DNA of 63,033 nucleotides, filler included, from Folioceros fuciformis (Eukaryota): assembly GCA_049999805.1 (NCBI GenBank). It is 17 parts of 17 records of this genome, joined end to end, with 100 filler letters (N's around TTAATTAATTAA, not from the genome) between each part and the next. Parts side by side here need not be neighbours in the genome. Positions count along the whole stretch, not along the records: positions 1,297 to 4,642 come from JBNGIO010003744.1; 16 more parts are not named here. The stretch is one strand, 5' to 3'. Below, one piece after another: positions 1,297-63,033 of the stretch. The notes under the pieces were generated by a model. That model ran no database searches, had not been told where the DNA came from, and saw nothing but the letters and a program-made list of their open reading frames with translations. The translations under genes and the position numbers were made by a program. Within the stretch, counting starts at the first letter, position 1; each line of letters opens with the position of its first letter.

Positions 1297-2868
1297 TTGA
1301 GGTGGAGTATCATTTCATCAGAGACTTGATTAAGAGTGGACAGGTTATACTTGAGTATGTGCCAACAGTAGAAAATCCAGCAGATATTATGACAAAAGCC
1401 CTAGGTAGGGAGCTGCACGAGAGGCACATGAAATGTTTAGGAATGGGGAAGCCGAATGACTTCCTCAGTCCTGCAGTTTAGTGACCCAAACTACCAGTCA
1501 TATCCCCAGTCTACGCTGTTTTCTTCCACACTATTTACAGCCACNNNNNNNNNNNNNNNNNNNNNNNNNNNNNNNNNNNNNNNNNNNNNNNNNNNNNNNN
1601 NNNNNNNNNNNNNNNNNNNNNNNNNNNNNNNNNNNNNNNNNNNNCTCATCCGATCTTGGAGAGTTTCTCTTCCTACGCTCCACGTAGGAGATCCTCTCCT
1701 CAGTCTCAAGGCTGTGCTCTTCCTCCAGCCTTAGTTCAGATCCTGCAGGGCAAGTGGGAGCTTGTTAGAGAACTGTGAGAAGAAAGCAATGGGGATGCTG
1801 ACATAAAAGTAGACAGGGAACACTTACTGTAAAAGCTGACCACATGGCGCTGATACTCGCGGCAGTGCTCTATCCTCACTCGTATCACCTTCAGATGGGT
1901 GTAAGGGCACTTATACCACAGAGGGGTACAAGGAATAGCAAAAGAACCAAGGCTCACAATCTTGGTTTCCTCATCAGAGTGTGTAGGAACTGGAAATCTT
2001 ATCGGCACAGTAGGCCTATAGTCAGAATCAGCATACGCGAACTCACCAGCTTTGAAGCGGAACTTGGCACTTTGATCCCTTGAAAGAGACTTCTCTTTAG
2101 GGGTAGCCGTCTTGCGGGGAGCTGCCTTACACGCAACAGCAGCCTTTGTCTTATAGGCTATAGTCTCTGACGAGCGCCGCTGATCAAGAAAAGCTTTGGT
2201 GGTGCCGCGCGGCCTCCCTCGCGAACGCCTTCCGCCGCTGCCACCTTGAGCAGCAGGAGCAGGCATCTTTGCCGATCCTTGCTGCTGAGAGGAGGCGGCT
2301 GTTCTAGTCGGCTTGCTCACAAACCGCCCTAGCTTGTCACGATGGCAGACACGGCGCTTTGCAGGAGGGGAGTCAGTAGCTGAAGACGACATCTTGAGCT
2401 CAGAGATCCTACGCTCCAACAGCTTACAAATAAAGGACTTGAAGCGAGGAGGGATGCTATAAGGGTCGCGACGCACCTGCTACCCAAGTTTGTGCAGATA
2501 CGCTCCATCGCGTTTCTTTAAAGGCAAAGGTGTCGGCGCAACCCAGTACATGCACACAGCGGAGCTTTCAGCTCAGCTCACAGTCTCACACTCGACCCGT
2601 GTTAGAGAAGGCGAAGAGGAGACGTCCGAATCGTCATAATCCAACAAGTGGGAGTGAAGGAGTATTGATGTTGGCATAATGAGATTAGGGTTATATTATA
2701 TCCAGTTTCATATTGTGTGTATAGTTTAAAATGTCTTACCTCTTCGCTAGGGTTACGACTGTTAGTAATAGTCACACCCATTCATGAATAGTTAAGTTTA
2801 AGTTTTAATGTTTTACTAACTCTCTTTTTCTTGAATATATACAATGTTATTTTTATAATAAATCTACA
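1297..2868 (+). mobile_element. 3' end of a Copia element: RNase H end, ~1.15-kb extra region, PPT and putative 3' LTR
   Basis: EVEYHFIRDL...ENPADIMTKAL ends at TAG 1479-1481. PPT AAGTGGGAG at 2646-2654 is followed by TG at 2655 and an AT-rich LTR-like tract to ...AATAAATCTACA 2868 (LTR end uncertain). Confidence 0.8.
1491..2392 (-). CDS. Antisense accessory ORF inside the Copia element, probably spliced (exon 1 2392-1828, intron 1827-1743, exon 2 from 1742 into the gap); basic protein with AT-hook and NLS-like motif
   Basis: MSSSATDSPPAKRRVC start and RRSRGRPRG AT-hook. Donor GTAAGT, branch-like CTAAC and acceptor TGCAG|G keep the frame open. The frame across the N gap cannot be verified. 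Confidence 0.55.
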
Positions 2869-2869
2869 T

Positions 2870-3700
2870 CTGCATGTAATTTCTTAGCAGAAACTCCACC
2901 AGATGTTTCCCACAGAGGATAAGTATGAATGGATGGAGGGGCACGTTTATGCTGGGCTTACAGAGGAAGAAATGAGAGTTCTGGCTGTAGACCATAACGT
3001 TTATGCAGACAAAAGGAAAAGGATGGGCTTCATTGAACAGGTTAGATACATTCATGACGAGCTGGATATTCTCGGACGGACTCATTCAGTGGAAGTTTAA
3101 CCTATACAGGTTGCTGGGTATGACTGACAATGGTGGAGATCCTCTCCATACAGACTGGGTACAGAAGATGGTTGATAGGCAGACTTTGCCATATTGAGTA
3201 GCCAGATGTTATGGGGTACTGTGGGATAATGTGGAAAGGATATTTAAAATGTGGGAACAGTGTGAGCTGCTAGAGCAGAAGAGCACAGTCACAACAGGGA
3301 CCAAGAAGAGAGCAAAAGTGAAACGGAAGATAGGAGATTCAGCCATACAAAGTTCTGCTTCGTAAGTGTCGAAAGATAGTAGTAGGAGGCCATCAGCGAT
3401 GTAGGGCAGGCCATGGAGAGCCTTTCAAGGTGTCCCAACAGGTGTGAAGGGAGAGGAGATGTTGATTGCAGTAACCTAGAAAGTTATTCAAGGCAAGCTG
3501 CAATTAAAAGACATGGACACCGAAGTCGAGAAGAAGAAGAAGATTCACTTGATTCAACATGCTTTCCGAATGGCGATGAATTGTGCCACTTTCGAAGAAG
3601 GAGAAGAAATGTAGCCGAAACATACTGAAGATTGCCACCTTTTGAAGTTCCAAACAACCTTTGCAAAAGTGGTAAGACATGTTTGTTTAGGGTACAAAAA
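2870..3700 (+). pseudogene. Degenerate coding fragment of unknown family
   Basis: Protein-like stretch QKLHQMFPTEDKYEWMEGHVYAGLTEEEMRVLAVDHN...MGFIEQVRYIH, then frameshifts and stops. Confidence 0.35.
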
Positions 3701-3872
3701 TTTTAACGATTGCCCTCATGAAAGACCCTGGCGCTCCAGTCAAACCAAAAGCATTGCGCTTGTGAACTAGGTGGCTCAATGGAGGCACTGAGCCCCCCGC
3801 GGGGGGACTCAACAGCTGGATCATGGGCGGCAATAGTCGGCATGTCTAATAAGCCGAAGACATCGGGGCAAA

Positions 3873-4642
3873 ATGAGAGGGAGAAGGTTGCTAGTCCCTC
3901 TGACGCTAGCCGGACAAAGGCCGAGACAGAAAGAATCGCAGGTACGGCCTCCTGAGGTGGATTGTGCGCAGGCTCAGGTACAGCCGGGCCCCTCCCAAGC
4001 ATATGTCTCGGACTCCACAAAAGCGAGTACAGGGTTAAAGTTGGGTCCACTAGCGGATGTGATCACGGAGGCGAGTTTTTTTCAAAGAGAGGAGGACAAA
4101 CTCTCTGCCAGCTCAATTGTGGGGCGCCATATGTCTGGAGGTCCTCCTACCATGGAGGAACTAGAGGAGTGGGTGGCTCGGGTAACGGGATGCCCTCTAG
4201 TGTATGTTTTCTTGAAAGCAGATGGTTCTTTCCAGATTAAGTGTGACGAGGCCACTGGGGCGCAGGCTCTTCTACAAACAACACTGTTCGTCCGAGATTC
4301 AGTACCGGTGGTGGTAGAGGCCTGGTCCCCCGGGAACTCCATCATGCAATCTAAAATCAAGCGGCATTTCCTATGGGTGGGTCTGCCTGCTTTGCCGGTT
4401 CAGCTCGTCCCATTGGTTCGCACAATTTTGGGGACCATTGGCAGGGTGGTGGAGGTCCCTAAGGTGGACTCCAGATTCTTTGACAGCACCAAACCACCTC
4501 GTTTCGGGGTGAGGGTCGACAGCCTCCAAGATCTGCCTGAAGGCGTAGTTGTTCGTGATGTGGAGGACCCATCTAAGAGTTTTACACAACTTTTCGATTA
4601 CCCGGATCTTCCCATCCGGTGCGGAGTGTGTGGCTTGCATAA
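3873..4642 (+). mobile_element. L1-type LINE ORF1 fragment (DUF4283-like region plus start of zinc knuckle)
   Basis: VVVEAWSP...LWVGLPALP...ILGTIGRVV...FDYPDLPIRCGVCGLH is the typical plant L1 ORF1 pattern; truncated by the linker. Confidence 0.75.
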
Positions 4643-5436
4643 NNNNNNNNNNNNNNNNNNNNNNNNNNNNNNNNNNNNNNNNNNNNTTAATTAATTAANN
4701 NNNNNNNNNNNNNNNNNNNNNNNNNNNNNNNNNNNNNNNNNNGCTCCGCTCCCTCCAACTCTGTTTCTCGTTCACCGACGACATTCAACCTTTCCCAGCG
4801 CGTACCTTCAACACGTCCAGTTGGTAGGAAGGCACCATTCCTTCACTTGGAAGGGCCCCAGTACCTTCCCCTACCGATTTCTACCTCCCTACACCCAACA
4901 CCCCTTCCTCACAAGTCTCCTCACAACACCTTCCACAACGATCCAGCTGCTCGTCTCTCTATGTCCAACAACCAACAAGTTCTTCCTTGGGCCGGTTGCT
5001 GCGTGCTTGCGCTTGTTAGCGAGAACTCCCAGGAAGTCTTTCCCTGGAGTCTATCCTCAAGCCAATAGCCACATAGGTATTGCCACACACCTACAGCAGC
5101 ACAACAACCATTCACAAGGGAAGCAACTTGCAGGGGTGCCCATGGAACAATATGAGCCCTCTGCCAAGCACTTCGACCACTGCAACTCTAGCCACAACCA
5201 GGNNNNNNNNNNNNNNNNNNNNNNNNNNNNNNNNNNNNNNNNNNNNNNNNNNNNNNNNNNNNNNNNNNNNNNNNNNNNNNNNNNNNNNNNNNNNNNNNNN
5301 NNAGTCGGCAACGAGATTCCTACGCTCTGCTGAGCATGAGAACTCGCCATGAGAAGAGTGCAGAATGTGGTGGTTCATTTCTTTGTGTAGCCCCTTCTTA
5401 TAGGAGAGATCGACACATGAACCTCTTCGACATGTA

Positions 5437-9239: not shown

Positions 9240-10305
9240 CTACGGCTGGAAAGTCCAAACCAAGCAGAGCTAGGTCAAAGAGAGAAAATTTTGATGAGCA
9301 TGGAAGCCAGTTAGACTGCAAACAGGACTTATGTACTACAGACTGACATACGACTTCTTCCACTAGAAGCCTTGAAATAGTCCCCCAACAACAACATTAG
9401 TTGAACACACACTCCTTTAATTCGTGAGGCAATCCCTGTGAAGAGGCTGTAACTGGGTGCCGAGGTGAGATGTGAATGTCACAGAACTGTTGCAGAGGCC
9501 TCCAAGAAGCCTGGACATCGTTGAAAACCCGAATACTTAATTATTTCTTCCCAGGCGATGAGGGGGGTACCTGACAAAATAGGATAAAATTCTATCGGCA
9601 GCCCTGCTAATTAGTGGGCTAATGAAACAGACCATTGTGATCAAAGTAATAGCTACAACAACCTGAGTCAGGCAGGTGTTAGAAACAGGCATTTCCCCGT
9701 TAATCTGGCATCCACCTTCCTGTGAAAGGAAGATTGTCTCCAGGACATTTGCTGGAATTCACCCCAAGTCACATGCAGCGCACCAACCACTCACCAAGGC
9801 TTTGGGCACTCTGCTTTCTGGCCAAGCAGAGACTCCGAAGGACATGGTGCAAAAAAGCAAATAAAAGATTAGAAATGAGACTGCCCCCATCGTTAATTGC
9901 CCATCTTCAACTATTCCCNNNNNNNNNNNNNNNNNNNNNNNNNNNNNNNNNNNNNNNNNNNNTTAATTAATTAANNNNNNNNNNNNNNNNNNNNNNNNNN
10001 NNNNNNNNNNNNNNNNNNGGACACGAACGACAGTTATGCGCCACCTTAAGTCTCCTGTGTCACAGGCAAGAGGGGGGGTTTTGTTGGGCACCATAGCTTG
10101 CCATTGCAAGGTTGAATTCATGTGTAGAATGCCCCAAAAACTAAAATTCAGATGCCCTCAATTCCAATAATTTGACATCATCCTCAAGCCTTGCAATCCT
10201 TGAGCAATGATTTCCATTCAAATCCACTAAAGTGTAAATTTAGGATCCTTCAAGCTTCATCTACAAGCTTCCTCTTCTGAGATCCATCCAATTGATGCAC
10301 AGCCT

Positions 10306-11416
10306 ATGCCAGTGTGTGTGCTACTAGCAATGAGAATGGGTTCTGTAACAGAAATTTTGGCCTTAGCCTTCACCATAGGGATATTGGTACTTAGTGAAGT
10401 AGGCTTAGGTAGCTCGGTTGAAATTAGGAGCCCACAATGGAGGACTGAGGGCGGCAAGTCCAACTTCCCAGAGGACCAGTCCTTTGAGGATGAAGCTAAT
10501 TCCATTGCTACAACCTTTGCAAGACGATCTCAACAACAACAACATATGCATAGAGTGCAAGAGCAGCTCCAAGTTGGCAATCCTGATCGTGAAAGTTCTC
10601 TACTAACTACCAACTTGATGGCATCTAACAAGGGATCAAGGAAGGCTAGGCCAAGAGAGGTGACTGTAGACAAGTTCGCATACTTCGGATACAATGGGCA
10701 ATGGAGGTCGCACAGCAACCTCACCTATGCATTGTCGACGACGGATGTGACAGCGCTGGTTCCACGCAAGGACATCCTGTTCGCCTTGGAGGGCGCGTTT
10801 CGGACATGGGCAGCTGTGGTGCCGCTCACCTTCGTGCTCTTGGATGATGCATACTTCGAGTGGGCCGACATCAAGGTGAGCTTCCTCATGGGCGACCACG
10901 GCGATGGGCAGCCCTTCGACGGTGCACTAGGTGTACTCGCCCACTCCTTCGCCCCCGAAGATGGCCGCCTCCATCTCGACCTTGCAGAGCAATGGAGCGT
11001 CGACGTGTTCTCCCCAGAATCACTACTTCTCCAAAACACCATGGACCTCCAATCTGTCCTCCTCCACGAAGCTGGCCACCTCATCGGGATGGGCCATTCA
11101 GAGGACCCCTCTGCTGCCATGTTTGCCGACATCTCCCCCCGCCAGGTAAAAAATTGCACACTCTGCTACATCCTTCCATCATTCTCTCAATCCAATCCTG
11201 AACTCGAGCTCTCAGCTCTGTTTTGCTGTGCAGGTAAAGCATGACCTGAGTATCGATGACATTCAAGGTGCACAATCTCTATACGGCCCTAGCCATGCCT
11301 TTCAAGTCCTTCAGGGCGTGATCGCGCCCAGCCCATCTTCTACTCTTGGCAACAGCCGCCATTGCCACCTCTCCCTACTTCTTCTCTTGCTCCCCATCTT
11401 TCTAGTCGTAACCTGA
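10306..11416 (+). CDS. Matrix metalloproteinase (peptidase M10A), 2 exons 10306-11145 and 11234-11416, ~340 aa
   Basis: Hydrophobic N-terminal signal, GDHGDGQPFDG, LAHSFAPEDGRLHLD, zinc motif HEAGHLIGMGH and Met-turn AAMFA. An 88-bp GT-AG intron restores LSIDDIQGAQSLYG. The hydrophobic C-terminus is GPI-signal-like. Confidence 0.93.
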
Positions 11417-17933: not shown

Positions 17934-19678
17934 ACAAGTTAGTGTTCATTGGATATACGGATGGTATAAAGGCCTATAAACTGTATGACCCTGCAACACG
18001 TGATGTCAGTCATGCTAGAAGTGTGTTGTTCGATGAACGAAGGGTAATGCGGCCACCTACAGCCACTCTTGACACTGGCAGTGGTGTAGAGCAAATACCA
18101 GCTATGGTCACCGAACATGATGAGGAAGAAGACTTGCTTGAGGACCTTCAGGTGTTGAGCCAAGTTGATGTGGACACTCTGGAAGTGTCTAATTTTGATC
18201 AGTCAGGCGAGTACGATGAAAACATGCTGGAACCAGATGCAAACGATGATTTATCTCCAGAACATGATCCTGGCGATCTGGAGCATGTACCTGAAGTGGG
18301 GGCCAAAGTTGATGACGATGTCGGTTTGGATGGAGCTGAACAGCCACCTGAAGAGCAGCCTCGGAGGTANNNNNNNNNNNNNNNNNNNNNNNNNNNNNNN
18401 NNNNNNNNNNNNNNNNNNNNNNNNNNNNNNNNNNNNNNNNNNNNNNNNNNNNNNNNNNNNNNNNNNNNNGAGAGAGAGGAATAGACCGTGGAAGGAGCCT
18501 CCTTTGGAGATGGAGGACTGGCGGCCTGCAGTGACACGCAAATCTAAGTCTAGAAAGCAGAAAAGCAACAAGGATCAGGGCAGTACATCTGCTGCTACTG
18601 ATGTGCCACCAGTTGGGGCACCTGGATCTGGCGGAGAACCTCAGAGTGCTGGACATCCAGAAGAGGAGACAACACCTTCTACAGCCTATGTACAGGCTTT
18701 ACTTGCAGCAACCACCGATTCCACAGAACCTGCAAACATGCAGCAGGCATATTCAGGTCCTGAAGAAAAATTCTGGAAGAAAGCAGTAGATGAGGAGTAT
18801 TCCTCAATCATAAAAAATGGAACATGGACTCTAGTTGAGTTACCTGAGGGTAGAAAGCCCATATCCTGCAAGTGGGTATTTAAACGTAAAATGAATGCTG
18901 ATGGTAGTATAGCAAGGTACAAGGCCCGCTTGGTCGCGAGAGGTTTCTCTCAGATTCCTGGAGTTGATTATTTCGACACTTTCGCACCAGTTGTCAAATT
19001 CTCTACCTTGCGCATGGTTCTGGCTCTGGCTGCCCACATGGATTTATACCTGGAACAAATGGATGTAAAAACGGCATTTTTGCATGGCATGCTGGAGGAG
19101 GACCTGTACATGGAACAACTAGAGGGTTATGTTCACCGAAAATCCGGCTGATTTACTCACAAAAGCCTTGTCTAAAGAACAGCATAACAAGCATGCAGCA
19201 AGACTGGGCATAGCAGTCTGCAGTGAGGAATGAAGACTACTGCCTGATAGCACCCTGGATTATGTCGCAGCTATGTAGTAATTTCGGGAGTGGCCGGGTG
19301 CTGACACGGTCCAAGGCGGTGACGATCCAGGCGAGAACAAATGCACGATTCTTCAGCAGCAGCGTGCAGATTGAGAGAAAGTAGGTCAGTAGAGTCATGT
19401 CGTCGAGTGCAAAGTTTTTTTTTCAGTCGTGAAACTCAAGTGGGGGTGACGGCGTAGTGTTTCGTTTCACCTTAAACCTAAAACTATATATATATATAAT
19501 TGTCTATACCTAGAAGTAGTTAGGGTTACGTGCTAGGACGGTTATTTGTTTTTCTAACTACCGAGATGTCAAGCGACATGGACAAGCCGCGTGTAAGCCA
19601 CCAGCACGTTCCCGTGCAATATTGAATATACTCTTATGCGATCTGCATACGTGCGTGATGCTAGCTCGATCCACGTCA
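17934..19678 (+). mobile_element. Copia 3' part (integrase tail, RT start fused by deletion to RNase H end), PPT and 3' LTR 19447-19678
   Basis: FIGYTDGIKAYKLYD, RYKARLVARGFSQIPGVDYFDTFAPV and MDVKTAFLHG, then ENPADLLTKAL. PPT AAGTGGGGG precedes an LTR with termini TGACG...CGTCA. Confidence 0.9.
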
Positions 19679-23249: not shown

Positions 23250-24754
23250 TCACGGCCGACCCTTACAACTGCAACAGCCATCTGAGAATTGATGTACACG
23301 GTATCCATCCCTTACAACAATGTGTCTTTGTTCAAGCCTTGACATGAGCTCCGTGGAACTGTGGCAGTCACTGCACATGCGTAGATTTTTCGTTACCACC
23401 AGAGGAGTGCCGCTCGGTGTGTTCAAGAGGCCAAAAGCCAGAGCTAGCTTCTCAGCATGCCCGCAAAGCAAATCTTCCTTTTCCATCTCAGACAGTGGGT
23501 TCAACACCAACTTTGTTTGTGGTACATGTCCCCCTTCCTGCTTCAGCCGGGCATTCGTGCTCTCCACTTTAAGCGCAATATTCTCTTTCCTTTCTCCCAC
23601 GAAAAATCTATGCACCTCCTTATTCACCTCAATGGTCGCCACTGCAGGTTTCTTGTTAGCGCCTGCTACTCTTCTCTGTGTTTCTATCCTGTCTACATCG
23701 CCCCACATACCTGCATCTGCGTAGGTATTGGCCATGAGAACATAGGCCGACGCCCTTTGAGGTTCCAGCCTAACAATCCTTTCGAAACACCACACAGCCC
23801 TTTCTACATCCCCGTGACTTTTGCAGGCATGCAACAAAGATATCAAGCCCACAACATTACTCTGGTACTCACATGACAATAGCATCGTCTCTGCCTCATC
23901 TAATTGGCCAGCACGCCCAAGAAGATCAACCATGCAGGTGCAATGCTCAACAGTAGGTTTGATGCCATGCTCTTCAGTCATGGAATCAAAGTGTTTTCGA
24001 CCCTCGTGGACCAATCCCTCATGGCTGCATGCTACTAGGACGTACGTAAGTGAAAGTAACATCATTAGGATGAGCACCCGCAACCAACATCTCCTCAAAA
24101 CAAGCTAGTGCCTTGTGACCTTGACTAAAAGCACCTTACCCAGAAATCAAGGCATTCCATGTCACCACATCCTTCGCGACCATGCTGTCAAAAACCTGGC
24201 GTGCATCTTCCATTTCACCACATTTTGAATACATGTCCACCAGGCAGGTGCCCACACTACGTTATCCAGCAGTCCTCGTTGGACAATCTGTGAGTGAAAC
24301 TGCCTGCCCATATGTAACGCACCCGTAAAGCATCTAGCTTGTCCACTCTGGTGAGCACATCCATGGCCTCCTCTAGCCTACCTCCACATGCATACATGCG
24401 CAAGATATGCATTTCCTGCTTACACAACGTGCCCACTTTAGCAGCAGAAACGACTCCCATTTCCTGCACACCTCCCAGATTCAGCCTTACGGAGATCTGG
24501 ACTCGGGAGGAGAGGCACCATGGCCCATTTGCATATCCAAGTAAATGAGCTGCTCATCAACCCAAGCTGGCTTAAACATACTGTTCAACCACAGCACCTC
24601 GCCGGACCCCTTGCGCCGGAAGTCAGGGGAACGGGAGCTCTTATTACCTCGTCTGTTATCCCACCACAAGGTAGGGTCCAGAAAAAATTGTTGCCACAAG
24701 TGCTCCTGCTCCTGGCAACGCACATCGCTGGAAAACCCGTCCACAGATGGGTTT
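23250..24754 (-). pseudogene. PLS-class PPR-E-DYW:KP (GRP-type) RNA-editing factor pseudogene with N-terminal OSB/PDF-like motif
   Basis: PDF-like WWDNRRGNKSSRSPDFRRKGSGEVLWL; PPR motifs LVDMYSKCGEMEDARQVFD and DVVTWNALISG; then KKPAVATIEV, HAEKLALAFGL, CSDCH and terminal CSCKGRP*. Stop at 24136-24138, 4-bp duplication frameshift near 24040-24048, most of the PPR array missing. Confidence 0.9.
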
Positions 24755-24844: not shown

Positions 24845-26020
24845 AACACATTTCCCACACGAACACCACGAGCAACCACGTGTGACGGCTCAGGCTGTAC
24901 AGGTTGAATGCGACAGCCTGCGCAGTTGAAGAATATTTCATGACCTGCATCTGCAATCTGTGCAACAGAAAGAGGATTCCTCACGAAATTAGGTCCATGA
25001 TGCACATTCTCAATACGCGTGGAGTTACCGCCCTGCAACTGAATGTGTAAGACTCCTTTCCCCTCGATATCATGTGATGTATTGTCACCGAGTGCCACTG
25101 TGTGGCCCCAGTGGCCCTTAGGAGTCTAGTGTAGCTAGTAAACCCTGGAAGGTTGTAACTGAAGTGCTAAGATGCACCAGAGTCAAGATAAAGACTCTCA
25201 TCCTTCGTCGATGAAGTAGCTCCATCGCTAGCCACAAAAGATTGTTCCTGCTAAGGTTGCTGACTCACTTGATTGGCTTGAGAGGATTTCTCCTTCTTCG
25301 ACTCGTCTGCCAACCTGGTTCTACATTCTTTGGCGTGATGACCTGGCTTCCTGCAATAATAGCAAGATCCTTTCATCGTACCGCTCGTACCATCCTTCTT
25401 CTCCTCATCTGTAGACTTGGACTCGTCCTTAGACTTCAACTTTGCCTTTGCTTTGTCTTTCTTGGTGAAAAGGACAGCATCATCACTCTTCTCTCTCTTG
25501 TTTGAAAATTCCAATTCTTCCTACAGAAGCAATCCGACCACCTCATCCAACGACGGCTGCTTCTCGCTTGAACGCATCGCAACTGTTGTCCTGAAGGCTG
25601 ACACAAATGGCTTGTAGGTTGCTGGTAAGCTACACAACAACACCACGAGGATCCTTCCCTCGGTTAGTTTCATGTCCATCGCCTTCATCTGGTCCACTGA
25701 GGTCTTTAACTTGTTCACATGTTGTTGGATGGTGTCGCCTGCGGCCATCGTGAAGTTTGCAAATTGTTGTTCCAACAGCATCGAACTTACCATACTTTTC
25801 TTTTTGTATGTATTGCAGAGGGTGTTCCAAGCTTCTTGTGACGTTGCGCATTCGCTCAATTGAGAGAGAACGTCATCTAAGACATTCAACAAGATTGTTG
25901 CCAGCACTCATCCATCTTTGTCGAGGTCTTTCTCAGTGGGTGCAATGTCGAGACCCTTGTCAGTGAACTTCCATACTCCCTCCTTAATAAGACGCATTTT
26001 CATCTTCAGCTTCCATAATG
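24845..26020 (-). mobile_element. Copia gag-protease fragment
   Basis: LWKLKMKMRLIKEGVW gag start, CYYCRKPGHHAKEC knuckle, LDSGAS protease, VARGVRVGNVF. Confidence 0.88.
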
Positions 26021-45903: not shown

Positions 45904-47715
45904 ACAAAGTGCCACAACGTCCTGGCAAACTCTCGGATAGTTGCCATAGGATGGATGCCCTAGGAAAACTAGAAAATTCCCAACTCTCACTGCTCCCTCA
46001 GGTCGCCTGCTGGCAGACGTTGCCGGCTTCAAGGAATTGCCCTGGTGCCATGAGGAGATAGGAAGGGGTTCTACGGGAGGACACCGAGATGAGGAGCGTG
46101 AGAACAGAAGCGCATCAGAGCAAGCGGGTGTGTCATCAAGGAAGAGCAAGGAGCAAAGATAAGGGAGGCGGGAAGTTGGAGGAGAGGTAGTGCATCGGAA
46201 TGAGAGACAGATGGAGTGGTGGGAGGGAGAGGGAAGGTGGTGGAGCGTAAGGGCTGGCGTATGCTAGCATAAGAATTTACGCTCCCATCGTGGGTACGGC
46301 TACAACCATTCGGAAACGGTTATGCTCGCCTTTCTTCATGATGACGAGAGTGCCAAATTCGGGTCGATAGTGGCGTGTGTCAATGTGTTGGCCCATGGTC
46401 CCCATAGGTTTGGCATGTCTTCTACTCCAAGGAACTAAGGTTTACCGAAATACTGTTATTATCCTAAGAAAACAAATATCTTGCCCACTCCGATAACGAG
46501 TCTGATGGACCACCGGAGGACTACTCCACTGATTATTTTTGGGGTTGACGGCTGCAATTTTAGATAGCTTATGCCTTGTGAATCCGGTCTAGAATTGTCT
46601 GTAGCTGCTGTGTCTCTCATTTGAGTGCAAAAATAAAGACATTTTTTGCTACAAAATCCATTAGACTCCAAACAATAGTTGCTTCTATGATGGCCTTCAT
46701 CACAACCCTTTCACAATTGGGCCCGTTTAAGCCTCACCCTTTGACGTACCAACGGCTTCTATAGCTCGGGCCACCTTTTGACAGACCCAACCTAGTATCA
46801 GCATCTACAGTCGCATTTTTGTCCCCCTTCTTGTATATGGGCCACAAGAACTAGGCTATGTTGCAAATCAGGTGAAACTTCATTTGAAGAAAACACACAC
46901 GTGTGTAAACCTTTATAAGATATGGGTGGTGTGGTGAACATGCTTGTGCATACATAGAAGTGTTGATTCGAGGTCTACACCCCTGCCACGGTGCATCCCT
47001 ACGACATTGTAGCAAAAGAGACAGTTTATATTATTTTACGATTAATATGGTGCAACATTAGCCACTACATGAACGTCACCTCGATATGATCACAGCCCTT
47101 GTGCTATATTGCAACATGCCCTACAAAACCTTTTTCTCTCAAAGCAAATCCCATCATCAATGAGTAACATTGCTTTGCAAATGCATTGCACACTAGCCAA
47201 TGGCGCACTACCCAGGTGAGCAAATGGGGCACGATGCAAGGATTCTACACACGACATCAAAACCTAGTGAGCCTTATCCTCAAGGTACACTAGAAATTCT
47301 TTTACACACTTAAGAGAGCTACATAGGAACTTGCCAAATGAAACTTGAACACTAATGCAGTGTAAATGCGAAGCGTGTGGAACAAGAGTGACAAAACGTG
47401 CATAAACCTCCTGGGTTATTTGGGTTCCCCAAACCCTAAACACCCACTCGATGCTAGTGATGCGCCCCCTCCTCGACCCCGGTGATGTGCNNNNNNNNNN
47501 NNNNNNNNNNNNNNNNNNNNNNNNNNNNNNNNNNTTAATTAATTAANNNNNNNNNNNNNNNNNNNNNNNNNNNNNNNNNNNNNNNNNNNNCCTATGTTCG
47601 TCACTGTGGAGAGCTGTCCGCTGCAGGCCCTTCCCCGAAGAGGTCCGTGCACCACAGAGGCCATGCTTTCAGAATTGTGCATGTTTCATCTATAAGAAGC
47701 TAAATGGGTTCCACA

Positions 47716-48134
47716 GTATGGAATACCGATGCGGATTTTTAATACGTATTTTATATGTGAATATTCTGTAGCATCTCGGAAATATTCCTATACTATACCT
47801 TGCCACATGAACTCGACGTACACACCGTATACCAAATTGTTTTAAGTATGTCTAACCACTTTGTATCCCGAAAGGGACATAGTCTTTAAAGTTAACAACA
47901 GTTGGCGGCCGGCAACTCCGCAAGTAGAGCGGCCGGCCAGCTGCTGCAGGGCTCGCCCGCCCAAGCTGGATGCAGCAGCCGGGCTCCGCAAGTACTTGCG
48001 GCGGCGAGCTGCTGCAGAGCTCGACCGGGGCGAGACTGAAGGGGGTACAAATGTTATGTCCCTTATTTTTTCACCGTATACCGTCGCTCTAATATTTCTA
48101 TGAAAGAACCCTTGTCCGTATCGGTATTTCATAC
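47716..48134. mobile_element. MITE-like element with 20-bp terminal inverted repeats
   Basis: GTATGGAATACCGATGCGGA vs TCCGTATCGGTATTTCATAC (18/20 complementary). A related end occurs at ~21935-22081 (minus). Confidence 0.6.
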
Positions 48135-48740
48135 CAAAGCAGCGTGTTTGGTACACTTCATGGTTTCTTCTTCATGGTCTTAGCCCCCGCAACTCACGCT
48201 CTCGTTTCCTCTGAATTAGACCATGAGCCTGTGTATCGCATGCCAAAGGGGACGCATCCTCTCTCTCTAAGTTGTTTTACAAACACAAGGAGTACGCTTT
48301 CCCTTTGGCGCGTACGCAAGGGTTTACACGTCCCTTTTGGCGCGTACGCANNNNNNNNNNNNNNNNNNNNNNNNNNNNNNNNNNNNNNNNNNNNNNNNNN
48401 NNNNNNNNNNNNNNNNNNNNNNNNNNNNNNNNNNNNNNNNNNNNNNNNNNGCATACACGAGTTTTAGAGCCAAAACCAAACACGACATGCTTCCACTTTG
48501 CAAGCAAACCTTGCTCAAGCACGGGCGCACCCCACCCATGGGTACAGGCGGTGTTCGGGCTTTCTGCTCTAAGACCGCCCGGCATCCAGCCCAAAACGGG
48601 CTGTAACCTGGTTCAAATCATTGAGCCATGTCCCCTTTGTTGCAGAGTCTGGTTTGGTTAGTTTACTAAAATGGATACGAAAAATATAGGCATCAAAAGG
48701 GAATATTCGGGTAGATACACCATGGGAAAGCATTAAAAAA

Positions 48741-51700
48741 TGTATAGTGAGAGAGTGGCTCTTTGGCATGCCATACCTGCGACACCGGCACGCACCTAAT
48801 GAAGGATTGCTTCCGAAGCTACATGGTGAAGGAGGAGAGGAGAAAAGAGAGGTCTCGCTCTCAGTGTCTCAATAGCAAGGGAGCTCAAGGGGGTATTTAT
48901 ACCCTTTAGAAGAGCTCCCTATGAAGCTTCACAAGAAGCGCACAAGAAGCTGCGCAAGAAGCTTCCTACAGATTAGCTTAAGCTAATCTAAACTAATGGT
49001 ACTTAACTAGACACTAATCTTAGACTAAACACATTAGTCTAAGTACATTGGGTTTTAATAACCCTACAACCTCCCACTTAAAGGCCAATTTACCTTCATA
49101 GGAGAGTAGTCTACCTCATGCCCATGAGTGTCTGAGCTTGTGCGAATTGCTCCGTAGAGAGCCCCTTGGTAAGAACATCTACAGGGTTCTGACTGGTGTG
49201 AACTTTGACAAGCTGTACCCTCTTGTCTTCCAACACCTCTCGAATGAAGAAATACTTCACTTCCACATGTTTGGTCTTTGCATGAAACACTGGATTCTTC
49301 ACCAATTGGATAACACTCTGGCTATCACAATGCAACACTGGCAACTCAACCTTGAACCCCAAATGTCCCACCAAACGAGCAAGCCACATGGCTTCCTTGC
49401 ACACCTCAATCGCAGCAACATACTCGGCCTCTGTGGTAGATAGCGTTATGCACGAAGATTGCCATGAGATTGCCCCTCTAGTGCACATGAAGATATAACT
49501 TGATGTGGACCTCCTTTTGTCCATATCCCTTGTATAATCAGCATCCGTATATCCCACTACATATGCATCTTCACTACCAAAACATAAGCACAAAGCTTTT
49601 GTACCATTCAAGTACCTCATAACTCCTTTCACTGCCTCCCAATGCTTCCTGCCAGGGTTTGACATAAACCTGCTAACCACTCCCACTGCAAAAGCAATGT
49701 TAGGACGTGTAGCAATCATTGCATACATCAAACTCCCTACAGCAGATGAATATGGAACCTTCTCCATTTCAGCTTTGTCCTTCGCAAAACTTGAGCCATC
49801 CTTGCTCGATAGTTTCACATATGGAGGCAATGGAGTACTCAATACCTTCTCCTTCTTGAAACGTTGAAGCACCTTGTTAATGTACTCAGTCTGAGACAAG
49901 TAAAGCAAACACTTCTGTCTGTCTCGACGAATACGCATGCCAAAAATATGGCTTGCCTCTCCCAAGTCTATCATGTCAAAGCGAGCATTCAACTTTGACT
50001 TCAACGCTGAAATCTCATCACTATTAGTCCTAGCAATTAGCATATCATCCACATAGAGGACCAGAATGAGCAAGCTTTCATCCTTAGCTTGCTTCGTATA
50101 GAGGCAATGATCCTCATCGCTAAGCTTGTAGCCTTGAGAAAGCATAAATGAGTGGAACTTGAAATACCACTCCCTGAGTGCCTGCTTTAAACCATAAAGG
50201 CTCTTCTTTAACCTGCACACCAGACTCTCTTTGGCTTTCTCAATGAAACCCTCTGGTTGCTGCATGTATATCTCTTCCTGGAGATCACCATGCAGAAATG
50301 TCGACTTCACATCCATCTGGACAAGTTCCAAGTCGTGTCTCGCAACCAGACCAAGAACACATCGCAAGGTGGTCATTTTGACAACTGGTGAGAAAGTCTC
50401 ATCAAAATCAATACCTTGCTGCTGCTTAAAACCCTTAACAACCAATCGTGCCTTGTACTTGGGTTTGCCATGATGGGGTATGTCCTTCATCTTATACACC
50501 CATTTGCATGGCAACGCCTTCTTGCCCCTAGGCAACCGAACCAACTCCAAAGTTTGGTTCTTGTGGAGCGAATCCATTTGCGACTGGATCGCCTTCTCCC
50601 ACTTGTCCTTGTCAGTCACCGACATGGTCTCTTGATAACAAGAGGGCTCCCCACAATCCGTCAGCATGACATAATCAAAAGATGCAACATACCTGTCAGG
50701 AGGACGTGAGATCCTTTCTGACCTACGAAGCACCGGCGCCTCGATCGGAGCTGGTTGCACTCTCTCCTCTTCTACAAGGGGAGGAACTTGTTCCTCCACA
50801 TCACGACGTTCAACCTGCGTGGGACGGTCAAGTCCATCTTCTTGGAAGACCACCCATCGCACCTCCCCAGTTGGAGTAGGCCTCTTGTGCATCTTGGTCT
50901 CATTGAAGAACACGTCATTGCTGCGAACCATCCTCTTGGCCTCTGGATCCCACAAATGATATATCATCTTACCAGATTCACCATAGCCAAGAAAAATACA
51001 TTTTCTTGACCTAGGAGCCAACTTGTCTCGAAACTCCTTCGGAGCATGGTAGTATGCCTCGCAGCCAAACACTCATAGATGCTTGTATGACGGCTTCTTT
51101 CCAGACCACATCTCCTCTAGAACCTGTTCATCCACAACCCTATTAAGAGATCTGTTAATAAGATGCACCGCAGTAACCACCGCTTCTGCCCAAAATCTGT
51201 TAGGCAATCCAAAGTTTGATACCAAACTACGCATCCTCTCCTGGATGGTCCTGTTCATCTGTTCAGCCACACCGTTCTGGGGAGGAGTATACGGCGCAGT
51301 CAATTCTCTCTTGATTCCCTTGGAATCACAAAATGACTGGAAAGCCTTCGAAACATACTCTCCCCCATTGTTTGTCCTTAGACACTTCAGTCGGAGGCCA
51401 GACTGATTCTCCACAAGGGTAATGAATTTCTGAAACATTGTCCAAGCATCATCCTTTTTCCTCAAAGGATAAACCCACACCTTGCATGAGAAATCATCTA
51501 TGAAAGTGACAAAATAGGATGCACCGCCTAACAATACAGTGGGCATAGGTCCACAAACGTCACTGTGAACCAACTCCAGAGGTTTACTTTTGTGTTTACC
51601 TCTTGCTCCATATGGTGACTTCGTTTGTTTCCCATACAAACAGTGCTCACATACGGAGAAATCGGAGAAGTTAAAAGCAGGAACGTAACCAAAACGAGAT

Positions 51701-53080
51701 AAGATCTTCATTCCTTTTTGAGACATATGTCCTAACCGACTATGCCACAAGGAAACACTTGGTTGTTCCGTTACACAAATCACATGATCCTTGACAGTGG
51801 TCACCTGAAGTGAGTACAAAGTGCCACACTTCGATCCACGAGCTAAAACAAGAGAACCTTTGGAGATCTTCCAGGAACGATCTCCAAACCAACAATGGTG
51901 GCCAGCGTCATCCAACTGCCCTGCGCTAATCATACTTTTTGTCAACTTCAAAACATGCCTAACATCCTTTAGTACGAATGAAGATCCATTGTTGAACGTC
52001 AGCTGCACATCACCAATGCCTGCAATCTCACATGCGTAGTTATTTCCAAGCCGAACACATCCTTTCCTAGTAGCATCATAAGTGCTAAACCACTCCCTAT
52101 GCGGAGTAACATGGAACTCCAGAGTCAATTATCCAATTAGAGAATAAGTGACTCTCCACGGCTGTCAATTGTGCAAAATCGAAGGAAGAAGAGATAAGAA
52201 CATCTCCATCGTCAACAGAGTTCACCTCATCATGTTTGTCACTCGGATTTGCCTTATTGTCGCTCTACTTCTTCTCCTTTCCTTTGTCCTTCTTGAACTT
52301 CTCACAATCCTTCCTGATGTGACCCTTCTTGTGATAGTGGTAACACTCAATATTGTTACGACTACGAGATTTGCTACGGGAAGAACTTCGCTCCTTGTAC
52401 TTCCCCTTTGAAGTGGACCTTCCTCTCACCATGAGGGCATTGGAACCTTTCGAAGGTTCCATATTCTTCCTGTTCACCTGCTCTGTTAACAGACTACCTT
52501 CTACATTCACAACGATAAGACCACTGGTAGGAGCGGAATTACTCAGAGCTATACGAAAGGTGTCCCAGCTCTCTGGTAATGTGGCCAACAAAAACATAGC
52601 TCTCACGGAATTTGGGAATGAGATACCTTGAGATGAGAGCTGGCTGAAAATGGTATTGAACTCATTCAGATGATCGGACATCCTCGTCCCTTCCTTCATC
52701 TTCAAGTCCACCAGCTGTTTCAACTAATACACCTGAGAAGCCGCAATTTGCTTCTGGTACAGGTCACACAACTTCTGCCATAGCTCGTAGCTTGTGGTCT
52801 TGTCTTTCACGTTGAAGTAGACCGACTTCGATAATGTTAGCATGATGGTAGACCTAGCAAGCTCATCTAGATCCGGCCACTCATGCTAACAGGTTTCACT
52901 CCTCGCAACTTGATGAGCTTGATCTGCTTCTTCTGTACTAGAACATTATACACTTGTTCTTTCCAAAACAGTAAGTTAGTACCATCTAACTTCTCGATAT
53001 TGAACATGACGTTTTCTGAGGATGCCACGTTTCAAAATCGATGCAAATCAACCAAAAGGCTAGTTAGAAAACGGTCGGAA
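48741..53080 (-). mobile_element. Near-complete Tnt1/Tork-like Copia element with PPT and 3' LTR (49068-48741)
   Basis: IEKLDGTNLLFWK gag, CYHYHKKGHIRKDC, LWHSRLGHMS, ELVHSDVCGP, PQNGVAE, YKARLVVKGF, LYVDDML, YTDADY, KTKHVEV. PPT TAAGTGGGAGGT; LTR TGTA...TACA. Confidence 0.95.
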
Positions 53081-61556: not shown

Positions 61557-63033
61557 TCAACAATCTACAACAAGCCCCTTATCCTTGCACTTCATTCTGC
61601 ATTCATCACAAAGCCATGCTACTTTCTTGTCTTCCAAGTATCTCACTTGTGTCAACCTAAATAACTTCCACATTTGGCATTGAGATCGAAGGGACTCAAG
61701 AAGCTCTTTCAACCATCCATTCATGACCACTTCCTCATCATCCCTATCTGTGGCTTGCATTAGCACCAATTCACTATTTGCCAAGATGGATTCTGTCCCT
61801 AATGCAAGTCCTTTCATATCATTTGGTATGTCTATCCCAGCAGCCACATGAAGGCCTACTTTGACTAGACAAAAGAACATCTTGGTAGCATTCACCGAAA
61901 GCTTGCGAATCCACTTACAATTTTTCTCCTCTACAAGCATACCATAGCCAGGTTGTCCTTGCACTACGTGATTCCCGCCCCTCTCTTCACACATGAGGCA
62001 TAGATGAACCGCCACACCAATGTGAACCAAAGCTTTTAGCATTTCTACGACAGATACATTATCACGAGAAATGTAAGGACGACAAGGTAAGGTAGAGGAA
62101 CTATGATACCCAATAATGTCACTCATGAGCGACTCCAATAAGCCCAAAGTTTCCCTTTTGAAATTTGTTAGCTCCTCATCACTGAACTTGATGGCCCTCA
62201 ACATCTCCTCTTTATTAGAATCTAATTTTCTCATGACTTCCCCATGATGCATATCTTGGTTGTCCTTAATATTCTTCAACATATATTCCATGCGTTCTAA
62301 TTTTGTTCCACCCAAAAGATCAGAACGACACCTTTCAAAACGAGAACTTGTTGAAGTCATACTTGGTGAAGGATCTTTTGACTTTGAGCTCGTAATTGTC
62401 TCTTTTGATGTCATAGACAAACCATAACCTCCACCTGCACCTTTCTGCTTGCCATGTGTAAGATCATCCACCATTTGACGTTGATCCTTGTGAAACTTTT
62501 CATTCTCCAACACTATCTTGCTCAAGTCTTCTGCGTCCAAAAGCTCTACTATGGCATTGGATGTCAAATGTGGCCCATGTCCACGAATTTCAGGCCAATA
62601 ATGTACACAATCCGATATGTTGCGCATAATAAAGTATCCTTTCCCGCACTTCAAAGCTTGCTTTTCATCTAGAAGACGCTCTCTATAATCCTTTTCAAAC
62701 CATGCTTGCCCATGTCTATCATTGCAAGGTATCAACTTGCGTACACAATAGGGATTGATGATACCTTGCACCAATGTAACTCCCGGGCAACCTTTTGGTG
62801 AAGCACAGAAAGCTCTCAACTTGTCAAGGATATGATGTTTCACAAATGCATTAGCCAAACTTAGACTTTGTTTTGATCTGATGAGTACGTCGACATAACC
62901 ACCAATCATGTCTCTACCACTCAATTCTATGTCGACATAACCACCAATCATATCTTCACCACTCAATTCTATCAAAATATCGATGTTGTCACAAGCCATT
63001 GAGATAAGATTGTAACCAAACTTGTATTGATGA
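61557..63033 (-). CDS. TORNADO1-like (LRR-Roc-COR family) protein, C-terminal part, 5' partial
   Basis: Frame is open to the window edge. Contains CASPKGCPGVTLV, LPCRPY, HLCLMCE...HVVQGQPG and terminal VAWLCDEC, recognised from memory as TRN1 C-terminal motifs. Confidence 0.7.
   Translation of the reverse strand, partial: HQYKFGYNLISMACDNIDILIELSGEDMIGGYVDIELSGRDMIGGYVDVLIRSKQSLSLANAFVKHHILDKLRAFCASPKGCPGVTLVQGIINPYCVRKLIPCNDRHGQAWFEKDYRERLLDEKQALKCGKGYFIMRNISDCVHYWPEIRGHGPHLTSNAIVELLDAEDLSKIVLENEKFHKDQRQMVDDLTHGKQKGAGGGYGLSMTSKETITSSKSKDPSPSMTSTSSRFERCRSDLLGGTKLERMEYMLKNIKDNQDMHHGEVMRKLDSNKEEMLRAIKFSDEELTNFKRETLGLLESLMSDIIGYHSSSTLPCRPYISRDNVSVVEMLKALVHIGVAVHLCLMCEERGGNHVVQGQPGYGMLVEEKNCKWIRKLSVNATKMFFCLVKVGLHVAAGIDIPNDMKGLALGTESILANSELVLMQATDRDDEEVVMNGWLKELLESLRSQCQMWKLFRLTQVRYLEDKKVAWLCDECRMKCKDKGLVVDC

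Follow-up and report, generated by a model that had tools for sequence, protein, structure and literature searches.

The window analyzed here is a 63,033-base stretch of the genome of Folioceros fuciformis (GenBank assembly GCA_049999805.1), in which 17 unrelated short scaffolds are chained by linkers of the form N44-TTAATTAATTAA-N44 (for example at 1197–1296 and 4643–4742); adjacency across any linker is not real. Our subject is the scaffold at 1297–4642, which consists of contig A (1297–1544), 100 N, and contig B (1645–4642), every one of the 17 scaffolds likewise carrying a single 100-N gap. Its block 1297–2886 is the genuine 3′ end of a young Copia long terminal repeat (LTR) retrotransposon, comprising the tail of pol, a purine-rich (polypurine tract, PPT) region, and the 3′ LTR. 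Between the pol stop and the PPT, on the minus strand, lies an open reading frame (ORF) that is interrupted by a candidate intron and preceded by its own upstream region (Table 1). We conclude that this ORF and its intron are real, non-random, and coding-like and are borne by a multi-copy Copia element.

Table 1. Features of the scaffold at 1297–4642, in window coordinates (minus-strand features are given from their 5′ end, except the upstream region). UTR, untranslated region; nt, nucleotides; aa, amino acids.
Feature	Position	Strand	Remarks
Copia pol ORF, C-terminal end, stop TAG 1479–1481	1297..1481	+	60-aa tail, tblastn matches
Presumed end of the antisense ORF, last 17 codons and stop 1493–1491	1544..1491	−	One frame reads VAVNSVEENSVDWGYDW*
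Assembly gap, 100 N	1545..1644		True length put at ~69 nt from bridging contigs
Antisense ORF exon 2, part ahead of the gap, 32 codons (98 nt)	1742..1645	−	Open in the spliced phase
Candidate GT-AG intron, 85 nt	1827..1743	−	GTAAGT...CTAAC...21 nt...CAG
Antisense ORF exon 1, 188 codons + 1 nt (565 nt)	2392..1828	−	Translation from the ATG at 2392
Upstream region of the antisense ORF, candidate 5′ UTR/promoter	2393..2654	−	Upstream ATGs, TATA-like words
Purine-rich (PPT) region	2646..2665	+	AAGTGGGAG word at 2646–2654, by reading
3′ LTR	2666..2886	+	5′ edge uncertain, 2655–2669; 3′ edge 2886
Insertion flank, a different lower-copy repeat	2887..4642		Depth down to about 20–170

An earlier note, made from the sequence of this window, had described a minus-strand ORF with PPAKRR and RGRPR motifs and a clean 85-bp intron, and we find each of these as described. 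Translation of exon 1 contains PPAKRR and RSRGRPRG (RRSRGRPRGTTK). The intron donor GTAAGT stands at 1827–1822, the word CTAAC lies 21 nt ahead of the acceptor CAG, and the terminal AG is at 1744–1743. GTAAGT is present once over both strands of 1645–2665 (2 × 1021 nt), exactly at the donor, and the pyrimidine content of the intron is 68%, compared to 51% for exon 1 and 36% for exon 2. Left unspliced, the frame hits a stop at 1738–1736, 5 nt beyond the acceptor; spliced, it continues as R + SELRLEEEHSLETEERISYVERRKRNSPRSDE with no stop as far as the gap, while the other two phases contain stops, so that the spliced phase alone is open, as had been proposed. The interval thus has all the sequence features of a U2-type intron: GT...AG ends, a consensus donor, a branch word, a pyrimidine tract, and a reading frame that splicing alone keeps open. 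The ORF as a whole lies antisense to gag-pol and between pol and the 3′ LTR, which is the placement of an antisense ORF (aORF) of the aORF-3R kind.

The far end of the ORF depends on the length of the assembly gap. The stop at 1493–1491 lies 9 nt from the pol stop, in keeping with the tail-to-tail arrangement that had been suggested, but the ORF is in register with this stop only if the gap length is a multiple of 3. With the gap as written (100 N) the total is 817 nt, which is not a multiple of 3, and the spliced frame is out of register with the stop at 1491. Contigs of two public DNA runs, X1 and X2, both from one sample, provide a different length. These runs contain 0.85 and 0.84, respectively, of the sampled words of 1645–2900, and we aligned their contigs to 1297–4642, taking contig depth as distinct from copy number throughout. 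One X1 contig (355 nt, depth 204.9) bridges the gap, with letters 1–248 on 1297–1544 and 38 letters beyond the gap; a like contig in X2 (depth 159.6) runs from 1297–1544 into 1645–1682. The next X1 contig begins at 1653, a 30-letter overlap with 1682. By arithmetic (355 − 248 − 38), the true gap would be 69 nt. A gap of this length gives 565 + 98 + 69 + 54 = 786 nt, or 262 codons, and a predicted product of ~261 aa. Because the X1 and X2 contigs cross the gap at equal high depth, both sides of the gap belong together, and the concern raised in the earlier note that they might belong to different loci is contradicted by the bridging contigs in X1 (204.9) and X2 (159.6).

The carrier is identified by features on both sides of the ORF. 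The pol frame terminates in ...GMGKPNDFLSPAV (...LSPAV) at the TAG, at the position (1481) where its end had been placed before. Although the 60-aa pol tail gives no Pfam match by itself, it matches three other pol tails in the window (26184–26038, 49263–49117, and 19138–19215) with 39–54% identity and E values of 5e-11 to 4e-6 (tblastn); the first two of these lie downstream of the RVT_2-bearing ORFs of their own elements. In the comparator Copia whose pol tail is at 49263–49117, AAGTGGGAGG and then TG come ~31 nt past the pol stop, and its PPT word AAGTGGGAG (49079–49070) is identical to the word at 2646–2654. For this comparator (47591–53080) we found no direct repeat that could serve as an LTR pair, and its PPT and LTR start are assigned by reading alone. 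Because this other Copia in the window has ~31 nt from pol stop to PPT word, we regard the ~1.13-kb interval in the element studied here as added to a Copia 3′ end that is ordinarily compact.

The LTR is bounded less sharply at its 5′ edge, for which TG candidates stand at 2655, 2666, and 2669 while contig breaks point to ~2654, than at its 3′ edge, where it ends ...TTCTTA at 2886. Its termini are accordingly TG...TA rather than TG...CA, and the flank 5′ of the element is outside the scaffold. Word depth climbs in the bin 2641–2752, to 1021.6 in X1 and 686.8 in X2. At 2886/2887 the contigs diverge into several continuations, of which three each in X1 and X2 start with TGGTATCAGAGC, which we take to be the initiator tRNA-Met primer binding site that is typical of Copia. 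Because contigs continue from 2886 into TGGTATCAGAGC, the same terminal sequence also stands as a 5′ LTR. The earlier assignment to a Copia element therefore holds for the 3′ end, with its pol tail, LTR, and TGGTATCAGAGC continuation, but the element drawn there, from reverse transcriptase through LTR, crosses a linker that joins unrelated scaffolds. The reverse-transcriptase (RVT_2) pieces at 1–1196 sit on another scaffold than 1297–4642 and therefore cannot be counted as part of the Copia element at 1297–2886.

To place the length of the ORF against chance, we used dinucleotide shuffles of 1645–2665. A 247-codon stop-free run was reached in none of 2000 shuffles and a 218-codon ATG-started ORF in 2 of 2000. 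Codon usage was scored with a model trained on 18 ORFs of the window (5323 codons), 17 of which are gag/pol or host ORFs with Pfam matches, the other being the DUF4283 ORF. With this first model, exon 1 has a positive score (+0.140 bits/codon) in its own frame alone, all five others being negative; exon 2 scores 0.170 in the proposed phase versus −0.249 and −0.877; and the ORF tail at 1491–1544 scores 0.232 in the proposed frame versus −0.665 and −1.048. As the first model penalizes stops and hence favors any open frame, we reran the analysis on sense codons alone. The exon 1 score is then 0.068 bits/codon, whereas random strings that lack stops and match it in composition score −0.058 ± 0.034, and 0 of 5000 such strings attain the exon 1 value. 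It is reached by 21 of 340 other open stretches, most of which are visibly Copia gag/pol absent from the training set, and the codon usage of exon 1 falls inside the range of the Pfam-supported ORFs of the window.

The depth of the run contigs separates the element from its flank. In X1, contig depths over 1297–2683 are 204.9, 227.4, 183.6, and 230.8, rising to 406.9 on 2718–2886 and falling to 14 and 11.1 in the flank at 3088–3794. Read as a rough ratio, since depth is not copy number, the block 1297–2886 is repeated roughly 15–20 times relative to the flank, and its terminal part about twice as often again. The ORF and intron are thus inherited with the element in many near-identical copies. 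Diverged contigs of depth 9–11, with 26–30 other letters in about 290–324 (~9%), cover 1657–1946 and 2017–2340; because these low-depth diverged contigs also carry the ORF region, that region is older than the latest burst. Within the window, neither blastn nor tblastn found a further copy of the antisense ORF region. Among metagenome contigs, 96 pattern matches were obtained, with 0 confirmed, and the exact 34-nt PPT/LTR word had 0 matches. Rfam gave 0 matches on 1297–4642 at E ≤ 0.1, and none of the three trivial tandem repeats found lies within 1482–2665. As a separate observation, a further run, X3, differs from the window over 1297–3420 almost solely by C>T (41) and G>A (5) changes and resembles a bisulfite-type library.

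Between the start codon and the body of the LTR, ATGs occur upstream at 2637, 2551, and 2508, with another at 2677 inside the LTR, and the ATG at 2508 opens an overlapping 59-codon ORF. TATA-like words, which we picked out by reading and treat as candidates, are present on the minus strand near 2463–2456 and 2522–2516. Given these four ATGs ahead of the start codon, an internal promoter appears to fit better than an LTR promoter, and if the ORF is translated, a transcription start within ~110 nt ahead of its ATG would be likelier than one in the LTR. Of the public runs listed as containing the stretch, none is recorded as RNA; contigs of run X4, which we guess to be RNA, fall on 4348–4642 only.

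Antisense ORFs in this position are known from another superfamily of LTR retrotransposons. In the available portions of the papers cited here and below, aORFs between pol and the 3′ LTR, for which there are no database homologues, are described in Grande, RIRE2, Retand, and PvRetro13 (PMC7264820). The Gypsy aORF-3R examples (Grande gene23, rice RIRE2, Silene Retand, and ORF2 of PvRetro13) share both the position and the antisense orientation of the Copia ORF, and they resemble it further in having no clear homologues and in the basic, DNA-binding-like features suspected in them (PMC7264820, PMC11963269, PMC4093653). The product of maize Grande gene23 is nuclear, and the gene is driven by a promoter of its own (PMC7264820). 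The differences are equally clear. The Gypsy aORFs belong to Tat/Retand-type elements with intervals of 3–6.5 kb, whereas the present element is a Copia with an interval of ~1.13 kb. In Retand, antisense ORFs with Transposase_28 (PF04195) occur in 97% of clusters (PMC11963269), whereas the ORF studied here has no match to this TRP28-type domain in Pfam at E ≤ 10. An intron is predicted here, whereas a term search of the available text of PMC7264820, PMC11963269, and PMC4093653 found none described for Gypsy aORFs ("intron" had 0 occurrences in two of them). In bean, PvRetro13 and 14 other ORF2 families are Ty3/Gypsy, and of the 65 Copia families 63 are without an extra ORF, the other 2 having sense env-like ORFs (PMC4093653). 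SIRE-type Ty1/Copia elements (SIRE1, ToRTL1, pvRetro3/4) likewise carry an additional ORF in the interval from pol to the 3′ LTR, but these ORFs are sense, about 380–790 aa, and env-like, while the one described here is antisense, ~261 aa, and basic (PMC4093653). A term search found 0 passages on antisense or extra ORFs in the available text of PMC6317226, and in the open-access library that was searched, supplements aside, we found no Copia element described as carrying an antisense ORF that is spliced. The authors of one review call for more attention to antisense and spliced transcripts (PMC7264820).

Two more distant systems offer parallels for the arrangement and for the intron. HBZ of human T-cell leukemia virus type 1 (HTLV-1) is likewise encoded antisense at the 3′ end of its retroelement; its transcript occurs in a spliced form, and the protein is nuclear. 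HBZ is a bZIP protein of a vertebrate retrovirus; no sequence relation to the Copia ORF is expected. The HTLV 3′ LTR contains an antisense promoter (PMC7264820). The second parallel is with retrotransposition reporter cassettes (PMC12786077), of whose logic an antisense intron in a Copia element is the mirror image. An intron antisense to the element RNA is not removed and is therefore inherited; we consider the reasoning that such an intron escapes splicing of the sense genomic RNA to be sound.

We tentatively favor the reading that 1297–2886 carries a genuine element-borne antisense accessory gene, as described for Gypsy elements, and give it slightly less than an even chance. The element is a young multi-copy Ty1/Copia of a land plant in which the ~1.13-kb interval from pol to PPT would be almost entirely one antisense gene. 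Its coding sequence would run from the ATG at 2392 through 565 nt of exon 1, resume after the 85-nt GT-AG intron, and end in exon 2, 9 nt from the pol stop. Antisense transcription would most likely be driven by a promoter located inside the ~270 nt that separate the ATG from the LTR, and not by the LTR itself, and the transcript would be spliced; the intron, being the reverse complement within the sense genomic RNA, would survive retrotransposition. The predicted protein is small and basic, its notable features being a KRR patch, an RGRP core, and a charged tail at the C terminus; it may work in the nucleus on the transcription or chromatin of the element itself, as proposed for Gypsy aORFs. 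We regard as doubtful the further-reaching proposal that this Copia family acquired or evolved its own spliced antisense regulatory gene, as the counterpart in a plant retrotransposon of the retroviral antisense accessory gene. The intron, lying on the non-template sense, would be retained in each round of replication, and the small AT-hook-like nuclear protein would act in trans on the LTRs or chromatin of the family and so would serve deletion copies too.

Several results weigh against an element-borne gene, most of them concerning the protein. An AT-hook has a consensus R-G-R-P core flanked by basic residues. The "AT-hook/NLS" label (nuclear localization signal) of the earlier note has a counterpart in the RGRP core with flanking arginines and in PPAKRR, both seen by reading, the "NLS" being the KRR patch, but not in the AT_hook profile, which is unmatched at E ≤ 10. 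Pfam at E ≤ 1 and E ≤ 10 gave nothing for exon 1 or exon 2, including AT_hook and Transposase_28; the AT_hook model is very short, and HMMER filters discard weak matches. A word search for protein relatives of the antisense ORF gave 0 matches. An exhaustive phmmer search of 1.84 billion representatives returned 3 matches, which we rejected: they are internally repetitive proteins aligned over 4–14 short stretches with 25–39% identity. In the ESM Atlas, searched with the whole protein and with residues 100–188, nothing reached 0.9; the best value, 0.82, was reached by one-third of shuffled proteins. The ESM recognition score of 2078 is under the 2300 reached by 91 of 100 proteins of known families, and the AlphaFold2 single-sequence model has a mean pLDDT (predicted local distance difference test) of 41.8. 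Profile and sequence searches (Pfam at E ≤ 10, phmmer, and the PDB) thus yielded no accepted relative, and the structure model no confident fold. Among the candidates tried and set aside was an ankyrin repeat: a PDB sequence search gave one weak stretch (residues 152–179, 8.4 bits versus designed ankyrins), with no Pfam Ank match.

The remaining points of this kind concern the ORF and its copies. The 23 codons predicted within the gap may include a stop. The high-depth copies are near-identical, so an intact ORF requires no selection. Finally, a contig form that joins 1841 to 2642 and is without 1842–2641 has a depth of 104.8 in X1 and 77.1 in X2. It consists of at least 255 unlike letters, then 22 letters (1820–1841) that include the donor site, and then the PPT and LTR. 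Exon 1 and the region upstream of it are missing from this form, but its PPT and LTR are the same; it has apparently been multiplied and may have arisen by deletion or may represent a compact sibling family that shares the LTR.

These observations bear differently on the other explanations of the locus. The ORF could be a passenger, that is, a host gene, or the greater part of a small one, captured antisense into the 3′ untranslated part of the element and copied along without serving it. Capture could have occurred by read-through or by recombination, at the level of DNA or unspliced RNA, and the intact look could come from the youth of the family. Coding-like codon usage and a canonical intron would suit any recent real gene, the near-identical copies hold nothing that shows selection, and the form without 1842–2641 stands at roughly half depth. 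Transduction of genes by LTR elements is, moreover, discussed as an origin of such ORFs in the available part of PMC7264820. Yet the protein searches give no host-like homologue, and the ORF has both its ATG and its stop and occupies the whole interval, as a random fragment would rarely do. Residues 152–179 are weakly like one ankyrin repeat, which speaks for a passenger, but at 8.4 bits per stretch and with no Pfam Ank match. We consider capture of a host gene somewhat unlikely, though a serious contender.

It is improbable, in our judgment, that the interval is a non-coding spacer in which the ORF and the intron-like signals are fortuitous features of the untranslated 3′ region, any antisense RNA acting as RNA, for example as a source of small interfering RNA. 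Such a spacer would account for the missing homologue, the missing fold, and the low language-model recognition, and antisense transcripts may work via double-stranded RNA (PMC7264820, in its available part). The feature was also picked from a 63-kb window, which brings some selection bias, and its codon score is equalled by 21 of 340 other open stretches. Most of these 21 higher-scoring stretches, however, are visibly Copia gag/pol outside the training set, and neither the ORF length (0 of 2000 shuffles) nor the codon score (0 of 5000 stop-free random strings) is readily produced by chance; the set of intron words together with the closure of the frame would require further coincidences. An assembly artefact, in which contig A (pol tail) and contig B (ORF and LTR) come from different loci and were mis-scaffolded, is very hard to credit. 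The assembly is highly fragmented into short scaffolds, each with a 100-N gap, and the neighboring reverse-transcriptase piece is indeed on another scaffold, but the X1 and X2 contigs that cross the gap at a depth equal to both sides largely refute it.

If the ORF is an element-borne gene, it would be an antisense extra ORF in Copia, of a type described for Gypsy in the papers cited here, with a predicted intron added. Antisense extra ORFs recur in plant LTR retrotransposons, and their function is unexplained. The element described here would be a compact and tractable case (~1.1 kb, ~261 aa, roughly 20 near-identical copies, and apparent natural deletion derivatives) with which to ask what antisense ORFs do and how they arise. 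Should the ORF instead prove a passenger or fortuitous, there would be nothing unusual in the finding.

Immediately beyond the LTR, the region 2888–3365 (+) has three short open stretches that lie in different frames and look like the frameshifted remnant of a gene that we do not recognize; the first of them is strongly coding-like (0.178 bits/codon) and has no Pfam match above noise. Farther into the insertion flank lies the DUF4283 ORF (3873–4640, +; E 6e-9). In the first scaffold of the window, the gap is flanked by the same Copia pol sequence on both sides (1–181 versus 282–440) with few differences, which looks like overlapping or allelic contigs placed head to tail. The window also contains several Copia copies, which together with DUF4283, a PPR-DYW gene, and a matrixin point to a land plant. 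In one of the Copia copies, at 25254–25986 (−), the pol stop is followed almost directly by gag-like open stretches with a CX2CX4HX4C knuckle identified by reading, suggesting that the element is tandem or chimeric, with no intervening LTR. A 491-codon open stretch at 61560–63032 (−) runs to the window end; its codon usage is coding-like (0.080), and it belongs to no Pfam family. Host-type genes are represented by a PPR protein with E and DYW deaminase domains (23253–24104, −) and a matrixin (Peptidase_M10; 10231–11241, +).

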